The notes under the pieces: model-generated
Seen by the model: only the letters and a program-made list of their open reading frames with translations
What the model was told of the DNA's origin: nothing
Databases searched by the model: none
Part shown: piece by piece, positions 41,516 through 47,379 of the stretch
How positions within the stretch are numbered: position 1 is the first letter of the stretch
How the letters are laid out: each line of letters opens with the position of its first letter
DNA from: Chitinophagales bacterium
GTDB taxonomy: Bacteria > Bacteroidota > Bacteroidia > Chitinophagales > UBA10324
Direction: 5' to 3'
Assembly (NCBI GenBank): GCA_025056305.1
Contig: JANWWJ010000031.1
Coordinates: forward strand, 66,861-130,860
DNA: 64,000 nt
Position numbers and translations under genes: made by a program

Positions 41516-41612
41516 AGGTGTTTGTTACAGGCATAAATAAGGATTTGTAGCGGGCCGAAGAAAAAAATGTAGCGCACGTCCCTTTGTAACCGTACTATCT
41601 TTGCGTGCCCAC

Positions 41613-42092
41613 ATGGCCTGGTGGCACATCGTTTTGATCTTGCTTTTAGGCTGGCTGCTGGTAATGCTGGAAGTGTTTTTGATTCCGGGCATCACGCTGT
41701 TAGCCATCGTGGGCTCGCTGACCATGCTGGCCGGTGTAGTGCTGGCCTACAGCCACTTCGGCGCGCTGTGGGGCACCGTAACGCTGTTGGGCACGGCCGT
41801 GGTCACGTTGCTGAGCATCATTTACGGCTTTCGCAGCGGCCTGTTGGGCTGGCTGACCCTCAAAAGCAAGGTGGAAGGCCGCATGAACGTCATTGATGAA
41901 ACGCGCATTCATGTGGGGGACCGTGGCCTGGCCCTCTCTAAGATCGCTCCGGCAGGCAAGGCCCTCTTCGGTAACGATACCTATGAGGTACATTCGCACC
42001 ACGAATGGATTGAAGAAGGCTCGGAAGTGGAAGTTACCCGCATCGGCCTGGGAAAGATTTATGTAAAACAAATTCATAAAAATAATTCGTAA
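41613..42092 (+). CDS. NfeD family membrane protein
   Basis: N-terminal TM helices plus a C-terminal OB-like soluble domain ([30 protein letters not shown]). Its stop overlaps the floA start (TAATG). The ATG is at 41613; the track starts at TTG 41601. Confidence 0.8.
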
Positions 42093-43072
42093 TGGATCTA
42101 ATCGTTCTGGGCATTTTCATTCTGCTGATTCTCGGCGCCATTTTTCTGTTCCTGTATTTTGTGCCGCTGGGCCTGTGGGTCACGGCACTGGTAGCCGGCG
42201 CGCCGGTCAGCATCGGGCAGTTGATAGCCATGCGCATCCGCAAGGTTCCGCCGGGGCTGGTGGTCAATGCCCTGATCAATGCCACCAAAGCCGGGCTCAA
42301 GGTTACGGCCAACGACATCGAAACCCATTATCTGGCCGGCGGGAACGTCAACCAGGTGATCCGGGCTATGATTTCGGCCGACAAGGCCAACATACCGCTC
42401 GACTGGAAAATGGCTACGGCCATCAACCTGGCCGGCCGCGATGTGTTTGAAGCCGTGCAGATGTCGGTTAACCCCAAGGTGATTGACACGCCCCCGGTTA
42501 CTGCTGTTGCCAAAAATGGCATTCAGCTCATCACGCGCGCCCGCGTCACTGTGCGTACCAACATCAACAAGCTGGTTGGGGGCGCCGGTGAAGAAACCGT
42601 ACTGGCCCGCGTAGGGGAAGGCATTGTTTCCAGCATTGGTTCAGCCAACGACCACAAATCTGTTCTGGAAAACCCCGACTCCATTTCCAAGGTGGTTTTA
42701 GCCAAAGGCCTGGATGCAGGTACCGCTTTCGAAATCCTTTCTATTGACATTGCCGATATCGATGTAGGCAAAAACATCGGTGCCTACCTGCAGATGGATC
42801 AGGCCAATGCCGACAAAAACATTGCTCAGGCCCGGGCTGAGGAACGCCGCGCTATGGCCGTGGCCTTAGAACAGGAAATGAAAGCCAAGGCCGAAGAGAT
42901 GCGCGCCAAGCTCATCGAAGCTGAAGCACAGGTGCCTATAGCCATTGCTGAAGCCTTCCGCAACGGTAACCTGGGAATTATGGACTACCACCGAATACGA
43001 AACCTGCAGGCCGACACTCAAATGCGCGAATCCCTGGCCAAAGGGCCGGAAACACCTCCGCCTACACCTTAG
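42092..43072 (+). CDS. floA: Flotillin-like protein FloA (UPF0365/YqfA family, SPFH domain)
   Basis: N-terminal TM hairpin, then [19 protein letters not shown]...VNALI.A.KAGL and an Ala/Glu-rich coiled coil ([29 protein letters not shown]). Paired with nfeD as in B. subtilis yqeZ-yqfA. Confidence 0.85.
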
Positions 43073-45197: not shown

Positions 45198-45315
45198 ATT
45201 TCGATTGGATTGATTTTTTCAGCTTCACTAAGTCCTTTCTTGAGGTACTCGTGAACAAAAACTTTCGCATACGGGGGACTTCTCGTCCTTGGTTACCTTG
45301 CAAAATTCAATAAAC

Positions 45316-45333
45316 GAAGGCTTTTAAGCCTTC
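45316..45333 (-). terminator. Hairpin directly after the last gene of the island
   Basis: GAAGGCTT-TT-AAGCCTTC abuts the TAA stop (45334-45336). On the minus strand it is followed by GTTTATT. The U-tract is modest. Confidence 0.45.
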
Positions 45334-46359
45334 TTATGTTTGAGATAAGCCTTCTTTTGCAGGAAGATACTTTTCGCTTGTTTGATTCGTAAGCAATTCC
45401 ATCCTTTTAATAAAAACTTCTCTCTGGCGCGATACAATCACATCGTAATCATCCTGCTGGTCAGCATATTTATTTACTAAAACAAATAATTCTATTGCAA
45501 AAAAAAATAAAAATAAGAAGAACCAAATAAATAAAGCGACAGCATTTGAGAGTAAAATCGAAAATAACACAATCAATTCGTCTAAAAAACCGGTTTTTGA
45601 TTTCAGCTCAGCCTCCAGGTTCTCCCGGATGGCAAAAAGTCTGTTTTCTGACTCTAACTTTTTATCACGTAGGATTTGTATTTGTTTTTCTAAATCATTC
45701 AGTCGTGCAATGTTTGGGTTTTCTATGTGTCGCGATTTTACGCGTCTTTCCGTAGCTACTCGTTTTCCGGCTGTGTCAATCACGTATTGTTGATCGACTT
45801 CATAAATTATTCTTGTAGGATTTTTCTCAATATCTTCACTTAATAATCTAACCTCGGCTTCTTTGATCATGATGGTCGAATCCAGGCTATTAATCTGAGC
45901 AACAAGTTCCTGGGTTTTTTGTGGAAGAATTTTATTGACCTCTTCTTGTATGTTGGAAATTTTTTTCTTTTCAACGTCCTCCTTGAAAAGCATCTGATCA
46001 ATGATTACCGAACCAATCACGGCCATGACAACACCAATTAATCCTCTGAATAAACCCGATATACTCGACCAAAACTTTTTTTGAGTAGATAGAATAATTT
46101 GTCTTTCGATGCTAATTACAATTATAATCATGATTAAAGCAACAGCCACGGATGTATATAAGTCTTCACGTAAGTATCTTTGCGCAAACGTGTAGCCAAT
46201 AAATCCCCATATGATACTAATTATAAGAATAGCAGCAAAATATTTTTTCACCGATTTAACGCTTGCCTCGCTACAGTTTTGTAGAATAAGGTAATTACGC
46301 CCCGTAATAAAGCAGCTTAGCCACAGAATAAAATCATTAATATATTTAGACATTTTCAT
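45334..46359 (-). CDS. DUF4407-like membrane protein (N-terminal TM helices, long central coiled coil, C-terminal TM segment)
   Basis: 341 aa. The N-terminus FILWLSCFITGRNYLILQNCSEAS..KKYFAAILIISIIWGFIGYTFA and SIERQIILS resemble my recollection of the DUF4407 signature. Hydrophobic stretches lie at about residues 40-60, 67-85, 102-124 and 268-300. Residues 125-265 have a heptad-like charged pattern (EEVNKILPQKTQELVAQINSLD...LEKQIQILRDKKLESENRL). Confidence 0.65.
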   Translation of the reverse strand: MKMSKYINDFILWLSCFITGRNYLILQNCSEASVKSVKKYFAAILIISIIWGFIGYTFAQRYLREDLYTSVAVALIMIIIVISIERQIILSTQKKFWSSISGLFRGLIGVVMAVIGSVIIDQMLFKEDVEKKKISNIQEEVNKILPQKTQELVAQINSLDSTIMIKEAEVRLLSEDIEKNPTRIIYEVDQQYVIDTAGKRVATERRVKSRHIENPNIARLNDLEKQIQILRDKKLESENRLFAIRENLEAELKSKTGFLDELIVLFSILLSNAVALFIWFFLFLFFFAIELFVLVNKYADQQDDYDVIVSRQREVFIKRMELLTNQTSEKYLPAKEGLSQT

Positions 46360-46368
46360 AAAACGTTA

Positions 46369-46935
46369 TTATGCCAATTCTGATTTTGTAATTGCAATCA
46401 ATCCTTGTTTAAAACCTCGCTCATACGATAGGATGACGTTTTCAAATAGCCCTGAATCGTTATTAATCTGATCTTCAATTTCTTTAATTCTGTTGATGTC
46501 TATCATTATTTTCTCTTTGTTCTTTTTAAGGTCTTGTACCGTATTATCTAAACCAGCCTTAGCCAACAAATCTATTTTAAGATCGATATCCTTTATTGCT
46601 TTTTCATATTCGCTAATTTCTTTCATTATTATGATTTTCACATTGTTCTTAAGAATCTTTATTCCATTTGCCATGTTACTTAAGTCTGAGTTAGTCAGAG
46701 CATCATGATATCCCATTGATTCGTAATTTCTATTAAGAAATGAATAAATTTTATCAATGCCTTTCGATTCTTCATTTGAAGAACTTATTGGTGGTAGTTC
46801 CTGAGGATCTCTTTTTTCAACAAAAACGTCCTCAGGGATACCGTTTTCTGCCGCGTTTCTTGTGATGTTATTTGCATTGTTATCGACAACGGTCTGGGGC
46901 TTATTTCTATTAAAAATCAGGTCAAAAAGTTTCAT
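46369..46935 (-). CDS. Hypothetical soluble protein: low-complexity N-terminus plus C-terminal coiled coil
   Basis: 188 aa with no TM segment. The first roughly 60 aa are N/P/E/S-rich. Residues about 95-165 are heptad-like (EISEYEKAIKDIDLKIDLLAKAG...KEKIMIDINRIKEIEDQI). No family recognised. Confidence 0.55.
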   Translation of the reverse strand: MKLFDLIFNRNKPQTVVDNNANNITRNAAENGIPEDVFVEKRDPQELPPISSSNEESKGIDKIYSFLNRNYESMGYHDALTNSDLSNMANGIKILKNNVKIIIMKEISEYEKAIKDIDLKIDLLAKAGLDNTVQDLKKNKEKIMIDINRIKEIEDQINNDSGLFENVILSYERGFKQGLIAITKSELA

Positions 46936-46957
46936 TATTTTAAATTTACGTTAATGA

Positions 46958-47269
46958 TTATTTTACATATTTAATGGGGACACTGTATAGTTTGTGTCCT
47001 TTGTAATGGCAGGTTTCGCAAAGGGTTATTAATAAGCGGTTGTCGTAATCCCATGGATGCTTAAACGTATTCAACGACATTGAAAAATGGTATTGCCTAT
47101 GATGAATATGCAAGCGCTGATCTGACTTACAAATTACACATTGATGGTTATCTCTGGCCAAAATCTCACTTCGCTTTGCTTTCCACCTTGGGTCAAGCAA
47201 AATTGTATCATAATTCTCGCGATAAAGGGGGCCCTGTTTAATAGAATCTAAGTAAAAATCGGTGTTCAT
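46958..47269 (-). CDS. Small stand-alone HNH endonuclease
   Basis: 103 aa. WKAKRSEILARDNHQCVIC(C44,C47)...LHIHH(H56,H57)...DN(N77)RLLITLCETCH(C84,C87,H88). This gives the full CxxC...HH...N...CxxCH zinc-finger HNH signature. Confidence 0.75.
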   Translation of the reverse strand: MNTDFYLDSIKQGPLYRENYDTILLDPRWKAKRSEILARDNHQCVICKSDQRLHIHHRQYHFSMSLNTFKHPWDYDNRLLITLCETCHYKGHKLYSVPIKYVK

Positions 47270-47379
47270 GATAAAAGGTGTTTGCTAATATAAAAACTTT
47301 ACTCAGTGCACTCGCCTCAAATGCACTTGTGTTAATGAAAATAAATCAGCTCCGCCCAAAAATTCGTTGATCATCATGC

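Follow-up and report, generated by a model that had tools for sequence, protein, structure and literature searches.

A DUF4407 membrane protein is encoded with a partner protein and a small HNH endonuclease in a three-gene cassette that may serve in genetic conflict

In this study, we analyzed a DUF4407 gene located in a 64,000-nucleotide stretch of DNA (hereafter the window) from a Chitinophagales bacterium (contig JANWWJ010000031.1). The gene is located on the minus strand at positions 45334..46359 and encodes a protein of 341 amino acids (aa). It is the last gene of a cassette on the same strand, following the genes for a small HNH endonuclease and for a 188-aa partner protein, p188, with gaps of 22 and 9 nucleotides (nt) between the genes. 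These are exactly the three genes of a sharply delimited island of approximately 2.2 kb (45200..47375), which has a GC content of 34%, compared with 52% in the flanks. Because of this difference in GC content, the cassette in the window clearly appears to have been acquired horizontally.

We found that the DUF4407 open reading frame (ORF) is intact, with the GenBank start located two codons downstream of the ORF start. At 34% GC, where approximately 7% of codons are stops, the chance of 341 open codons is approximately 6e-12 by our own arithmetic, and the ORF is therefore not random. A Pfam profile search gave 137.6 bits to PF14362 (DUF4407) against a gathering cut-off of 31.3 (E=6.8e-40), aligning residues 25-312 of the protein with profile positions 2-296 of 297. 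A GenBank entry from a Chitinophagales metagenome-assembled genome (MAG), annotated as 'DUF4407 domain-containing protein', shares 100% identity with the window protein, which has 435 homologues, with PF14362 precomputed on every one listed. The family forms 724 clusters at 50% identity among 1.84 billion representatives. It follows that the ORF at 45334-46359 is a genuine full-length member of the DUF4407 family, as an earlier note on this DNA, made from the letters of the sequence, had proposed. The same note called the function of DUF4407 unknown, which agrees with our searches: in the full-text literature searched, DUF4407 or PF14362 is named three times, each time in passing, without an assigned function, partner or structure, and profile searches of PDB sequences with DUF4407 and p188 gave nothing below E=0.19.

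The Kyte-Doolittle hydropathy of the protein peaks at residues 40-60, 63-93, 97-126 and 256-299. We also modelled it with AlphaFold2 (AF2), as a monomer only and from a 40-sequence alignment. The mean predicted local distance difference test score (pLDDT) of the model was 71.7 and the predicted TM-score (pTM) 0.39, with block-mean pLDDT values of 77-91 at residues 141-250. Three N-terminal transmembrane (TM) helices were modelled at residues 31-62, 67-91 and 98-124, where the earlier note had placed them. This TM1-TM3 bundle (residues 31-124; 45988..46269, minus strand) carries the conserved residues W51, Y62, E85-R86, R105, G116 and D121-Q122.

The Phe/Leu-rich string described previously near the C-terminus is present as LFSILLSNAVALFIWFFLFLFFFAIELFVLV (residues 265-295), and so is the charged tail of approximately 45 aa (297-341, with 6 K/R and 7 D/E in residues 301-341). 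AF2 divides the last hydrophobic stretch (residues 259-299; 45463..45585, minus strand) into a short helix at 259-271, which begins at the conserved D260/E261, and a TM helix at 273-299 (TM4), which contains the invariant E290 and K297. Since D260/E261 and the polar S270/N271 are only about 12 residues apart, this stretch is probably an interfacial helix plus one TM helix, in place of the re-entrant hairpin or two TM helices suggested before. The tail that follows (residues 300-341; 45337..45462, minus strand) has a conserved D304-Y305 and an amphipathic helix at 304-330.

Averaged over the family, the N-terminus has a net charge of +4.2 and loop 2 one of +2.3, and the two bases of the central region have net charges of -1.2 and -0.8. 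These positive-inside charges, together with N-terminal fusions to the soluble p188 domain and a zinc-ribbon fusion, suggest that the protein most likely has four TM helices with both termini in the cytoplasm (N-in/C-in), so that the tail would be cytoplasmic and the central region periplasmic. The zinc-ribbon protein (P0134, 422 aa) has an N-terminal extension of approximately 97 aa with a CxxC...CxxxC pattern ahead of its DUF4407 domain.

Between TM3 and the interfacial helix, AF2 placed a 54-residue helix (126-179), a beta-hairpin (182-194/200-213) and a return helix (216-255). Both long helices have a hydropathy period of 3.5-3.7 residues and a single narrow hydrophobic stripe, as a family average over 124 representatives with 26-47% identity. 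The modelled helices and this period together indicate two antiparallel helices that form a hairpin, with the beta-hairpin as its cap, and not a single rod of 140 aa. Thus, of the coiled coil of approximately 140 aa claimed earlier, the heptad-periodic helices stand, and the continuity does not. The hydropathy, the model and the period all agree with the claimed layout, in which a long helical region in the middle of a multi-pass membrane protein is tethered to the membrane at both ends and projects from it as a stalk; Pfam DUF4407 proteins share this layout and the length class of the window protein. The predicted stalk comprises residues 125-258 (45586..45987, minus strand). Its beta-hairpin tip comprises residues 181-215 (45715..45819, minus strand), between the conserved P181 and N214-P215. 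From standard helix and strand geometry, we estimate that the stalk would measure approximately 80 Å and the tip a further 40 Å or so.

The TM helices have the lowest column entropy in the family, and the conserved charged or polar positions are E85-R86, R105, D121-Q122, D128, E261, E290 and D304-Y305. The stalk and the tip differ between clades. The tip has an entropy of 3.0 bits and varies in length from 15 to 50 aa between clades; however, its ratio of non-synonymous to synonymous substitution rates (dN/dS) within clades is 0.084, and we rejected a hypervariable arms-race tip. A value of about 0.08 gives no sign of diversifying selection, and does not speak for a sensor surface that evolves rapidly. 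The mechanosensory or envelope-surveillance role that the earlier note read from this geometry is an analogy.

Foldseek searches with the DUF4407 model returned non-significant coiled-coil analogues only (V-ATPase D, prefoldin, spanins). The best matches, to prefoldin and V-ATPase subunit D, had E-values of 0.02-0.2, 12-16% identity and query-normalised TM-scores of 0.13-0.22. Prefoldin subunits and V-ATPase D have the same helix - beta-hairpin - helix connectivity as the extramembrane domain of DUF4407, but they are soluble, whereas DUF4407 is a membrane protein. The resemblance is probably a topological analogy only.

The p188 gene (46369..46935, minus strand) represents a family without a name, of which 511 members are detectable; all are annotated as 'hypothetical', and none has a Pfam domain. 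The window protein gave no Pfam, NCBIfam or PDB sequence match and no significant PDB fold match. Folded alone in AF2, it has a disordered tail (residues 1-55) followed by a helical bundle (60-187), with block-mean pLDDT values of 87-96 at residues 61-188. With the patterns used, 39 loci (L001-L039) were found among 185,579 species-representative genomes, and a p188 homologue lies directly upstream of DUF4407 on the same strand in all 39. At least 13 of these loci have an overlap of 1-8 nt between the p188 stop and the DUF4407 start. Two metagenomic proteins of 495 aa (P0040 and P0053; E=3e-25) are natural p188-DUF4407 fusions, and the pairwise distances of the two families correlate in a mirror-tree comparison (r=0.87). 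These observations on gene order and sequence strongly indicate that p188 is an obligate partner of DUF4407.

Residues 1-9 of p188, MKLFDLIFN (46909..46935, minus strand; consensus MGLFxFF[KR]K), are kept in almost every family member, with or without the HNH gene, and could be a membrane-binding or partner-binding motif. The consensus resembles MG[IL]F, with which the membrane-binding helix of PspA/Vipp1 begins, but no PspA profile or fold matches p188. The PspA/Vipp1/ESCRT-III family was rejected for p188, given no Pfam match at E<=1 and neither PspA nor Vipp1 among the top 50 Foldseek matches in the PDB (best E=0.34).

The first gene of the cassette (46958..47269, minus strand) encodes a 103-aa protein that matches the small HNH endonucleases of PHROG 119 (E=4e-14). 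With 12.7 bits it stays below the Pfam HNH (PF01844) gathering score of 21.4, and in its clade the H-N-H motif lacks a conserved central Asn. Thirteen orthologues all have C44, C47, H56, H57, C84, C87, H88 and H92. Since this invariant set comprises the Cys4 zinc ligands and the catalytic histidines, the protein looks like an active nuclease, and since it has no signal peptide, it would be cytoplasmic. Its closest relatives are phage HNH and homing endonucleases, with 33-43% identity. The cassette HNH thus resembles the phage-type small HNH proteins of approximately 100 aa (PHROG 119, ββα-Me/Cys4), but differs from them in being chromosomal, in standing first in an operon with a membrane complex, and in a family-specific insert, RQYHFSxTLNxFKxPWEY.

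Of the 39 loci, 12 carry the HNH gene. We found a further copy in the cultured Persicobacter psychrovividus (L040), where HNH, p188 and a DUF4407 with 28% identity form an operon of overlapping genes. At another locus (L001, 7308-7403), a 32-aa remnant corresponding to HNH residues 62-93 (56% identity) lies directly upstream of a p188 whose tail motif is intact; it is a pseudogene, with the loss under way. On a neighbour-joining tree of concatenated p188-DUF4407, all deep branches carry HNH, and parsimony requires at least four HNH losses. Presence in all deep branches together with repeated later losses strongly indicates that the HNH gene was ancestral to the cassette. In the loci without HNH, no replacement effector was found; unrelated housekeeping genes lie upstream in these loci.

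A short linear motif in the disordered tail of p188 co-occurs with HNH. In the window protein it is IPEDVFVEKRDP (residues 33-44; 46804..46839, minus strand), and its consensus is PK[DE]hF[VI][ED][ED], where h is L, I or V. The motif is found in 14 of the 15 loci with HNH or its remnant (15 of 15 if the Persicobacter variant TLFID is accepted), compared with 2 of the 25 loci without (Fisher p=7e-8, kinship ignored). The two exceptions (L020 and L023) lack HNH and sit on short branches beside HNH-bearing relatives, and the same tree implies at least five motif losses. We also considered the motif as a DNA homing site, and rejected this because the peptide is conserved while its codons vary synonymously. 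Since the motif is kept with HNH and decays where HNH is lost, we infer that it docks HNH onto p188. The earlier note had suggested the 188-aa protein and the HNH as partners of DUF4407, and this is strongly borne out by the 39/39 synteny, the fusions, the Persicobacter trio and the joint retention of motif and nuclease. The p188 partner, the ancestral HNH, the hairpin-plus-tip model and the docking motif are not mentioned in the full-text literature searched, and are new relative to it.

Taken together, we consider it likely that the cassette encodes a stalk protein with four TM helices, p188 bound to it on the cytoplasmic side, and HNH leashed to the p188 tail. As to its role, we tentatively favour the possibility that HNH-p188-DUF4407 is a horizontally mobile cassette encoding a membrane-tethered nuclease module for exclusion of phages, conjugation or plasmids. 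In such a module, DUF4407 would be the membrane subunit of a three-part complex, with p188 and HNH on its cytoplasmic face. p188 would dock on the N-terminus or tail of DUF4407, near the charged cluster of E85, R86, R105 and E290, and would tether the minimal HNH to the membrane via the PK[DE]hF[VI][ED][ED] motif. Through the stalk, a disturbance in the envelope or periplasm would be signalled across the membrane, and p188 would then license the HNH held there to cut incoming DNA at the membrane. In the versions without HNH, the membrane protein itself may be the output. A bolder form of this proposal, which we regard as doubtful, is that the cassette is a three-component system of immunity or exclusion in Bacteroidota that has so far escaped recognition and shares neither sequence nor fold with any catalogued one. 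In it, a periplasmic stalk of approximately 12 nm would sense the breach made by a phage tail or a conjugation apparatus, and the signal would pass via the conserved charged TM cluster to a cytoplasmic adaptor, whose short linear motif keeps the minimal HNH on a disordered leash; the DNA would then be cut where it enters.

A role in genetic conflict is suggested by the rare and patchy family, the horizontal acquisition, the varying contexts, the nuclease in the operon, and a logic like that of Zorya II and Kiwa. Zorya type II combines a ZorA/ZorB membrane complex, which has a long coiled-coil element, with the HNH nuclease ZorE. The cassette likewise encodes a membrane complex, a long coiled coil and an HNH together, with conserved acidic and basic TM residues; unlike Zorya II, it has no MotA/MotB-like fold and no peptidoglycan-binding domain, its HNH is dispensable, and its coiled coil is probably periplasmic and approximately 12 nm long, in contrast to the long cytoplasmic tail of Zorya II. 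Kiwa pairs the membrane sensor KwaA with KwaB, and lambda RexAB pairs the cytoplasmic sensor RexA with the 4-TM protein RexB. The cassette resembles both as a small autonomous module in which a multi-pass membrane protein has a cytoplasmic partner, but neither has a periplasmic helical hairpin or a sequence match to the cassette, and the cassette was not found in phages or prophages.

Several observations weigh against the conflict role that we favour. There is no experiment or annotation that links DUF4407, p188 or HNH to defence, and PADLOC, searched at E<=1 for the window proteins and at E<=0.01 for 40 DUF4407 and 50 p188 family members, gave no convincing model match. It gave no Zor match for the window proteins or the family members, and neither PADLOC nor Pfam gave a match to Kiwa (KwaA with KwaB/DUF4868). 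In the p188 sample, 11 of the 50 members match PD-Lambda-5_A weakly (E>=2e-4), the window p188 not being among them, and one member matches PDC-M62B at E=0.008. PD-Lambda-5 is a compact restriction-modification and abortive-infection system with a methyltransferase (PMC9519451); the cassette has no methyltransferase. We judged the weak PADLOC matches (PD-Lambda-5_A, PDC-M62B, MTase_II) to be compositional or coiled-coil noise.

The surroundings of the cassette argue in the same direction. The flanking genes are mostly housekeeping genes (thioredoxin, cupin, glycosyltransferase family 2 (GT2), IMPDH, PFK, ATP synthase). Among 128 flanking proteins from 26 non-redundant loci of L001-L039, defence models matched Cas10 and Cas6 (Cas6b) twice each, and Cas1, DarG, PDC-M16 and an RtcR-CARF regulator once each, which are too few matches for any clear defence-island enrichment. 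Three other observations point the same way: no copy of the module was found in 50,697 phage genomes (INPHARED) or in pattern scans of IMG/VR, its sole plasmid occurrence is on a 1-Mb replicon, and in several Bacteroidales clades the HNH-less pair is vertically inherited in conserved synteny. The p188-DUF4407 pair without HNH has dN/dS values of 0.02-0.08 at proportions of synonymous differences (pS) of 0.3-0.8. These values suggest strong purifying selection, including on the beta tip, with no arms-race signature. The modest global confidence of the monomer AF2 model counts here too. A phage origin of the module was rejected, as neither DUF4407 nor p188 was found in INPHARED or IMG/VR.

The housekeeping flanks and the strong purifying selection also keep a physiological role open. 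In this alternative, which we consider unlikely, p188-DUF4407 is an envelope or membrane-homeostasis complex, such as a stress scaffold, an ion-conducting unit or a periplasm-spanning strut, and HNH is a dispensable add-on inherited from a mobile ancestor. The vertical inheritance in several Bacteroidales clades and the persistence of purifying selection after HNH loss agree with such a complex, and so do the TM helices with their conserved E, R and D residues as the most conserved part of the protein. Elsewhere in the family, a DUF4407 gene is reported to be under PhoP control in Riemerella, and another to be induced by roots in a strain of a synthetic community (SynCom). A homeostasis complex is, however, difficult to reconcile with a family found at 39 loci among all the species representatives and in 724 clusters, with the clear horizontal transfer, with an ancestral operon that is translationally coupled to a nuclease and carries a co-evolving motif, and with the lack of any link to an envelope-biogenesis operon.

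The cassette could also be selfish, with HNH as a phage-type homing or mobility endonuclease driving its spread, and p188-DUF4407 as an addiction pair resembling toxin and antitoxin, in which p188 restrains a membrane toxin and the insertion is thereby stabilised. We consider this quite unlikely. A minimal 2.2-kb island without integrase, transposase or flanking repeats would suit such an element, as would the phage and homing endonucleases among the closest HNH relatives and the decay of HNH after establishment, seen in the L001 remnant and the repeated losses; the gene order and stop/start overlaps are also like those of an antitoxin-toxin pair. However, the insertion sites differ between clades and share no common homing site, the HNH-linked signal in p188 is a peptide and not a DNA target, and the pair has long been conserved without HNH. 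Covalent p188-DUF4407 fusions would be atypical of toxin-antitoxin pairs, and a simple membrane toxin would need no elaborate conserved stalk. Finally, DUF4407 might serve as the membrane channel or anchor of a DNA-uptake or processing apparatus and position the nuclease to process DNA on its passage through the inner membrane, analogous to the membrane-bound EndA in pneumococcal transformation. The apparent tethering of a nuclease to a multi-pass membrane protein and the basic second strand of the window protein's beta tip (RVATERRVKSRH) would agree with this, but no neighbourhood scanned contains competence or conjugation genes, the predicted location of HNH is cytoplasmic, and HNH is dispensable in most lineages. 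We therefore regard an uptake role as very improbable.

The DUF4407 family now becomes testable, with a three-gene module, a partner family of 511 members, a predicted periplasmic-stalk topology and a predicted nuclease-docking motif. Should the conflict role hold, the cassette would add a new, non-homologous form of membrane-coupled nuclease immunity to the poorly explored defence repertoire of Bacteroidota; should the physiological role hold, a new envelope complex would be defined. The joint loss of the motif and HNH offers a clean prediction that can be addressed experimentally under either of them.

Outside the three genes, the island in the window has the gene of a protein with a type IX secretion system (T9SS) tail on one side and doxX and the H+-pyrophosphatase (H+-PPase) gene on the other, and its flanks are housekeeping. 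At its ends we found no terminal direct or inverted repeats, transfer RNA gene or integrase, and no Rfam element above threshold. We also sought an empty insertion site via metagenome relatives of the flanking 675-aa T9SS protein, and obtained distant matches to its C-terminal domain only. Genomic contexts of the cassette are unrelated between clades. Directly after the DUF4407 stop codon, a 7-bp GC-rich hairpin (45316..45333) resembles a terminator on both strands. At the other end, an inverted repeat, AGTGCA-N11-TGCACT (47304-47327), lies between the doxX stop and HNH start codons, and may act as terminator of doxX or in the regulation of the cassette; no Bacteroidetes-type -7 box (TAnnTTTG) without mismatch was seen. 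A short way upstream of the island, on the plus strand at 41601-43072, the genes for NfeD (163 aa) and for the flotillin FloA (326 aa; Pfam E=4.7e-159) overlap by stop and start at 42092. They form an SPFH/NfeD membrane-microdomain operon of the ordinary kind, without relation to the cassette.

Among the 128 flanking proteins of the other loci, three match XRE-type helix-turn-helix (HTH) regulators. At one locus (L036, 7992-8964), the DUF4407 gene is present as two ORFs of 250 and 50 aa, possibly through a frameshift, as a pseudogene or by an assembly error, and the GC content of the module there is 8 points higher than that of its flanks. We also found the Bacteroidota-type module on contigs labelled Nitrosotenuis, Saccharibacteria, Methanosarcina and Chloroflexota (P0002, P0048, P0054 and L005). 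L005 has flanking genes in common with the Bacteroidales loci L002, L003 and L006, and these four labels look more like MAG binning errors than cross-domain transfer.

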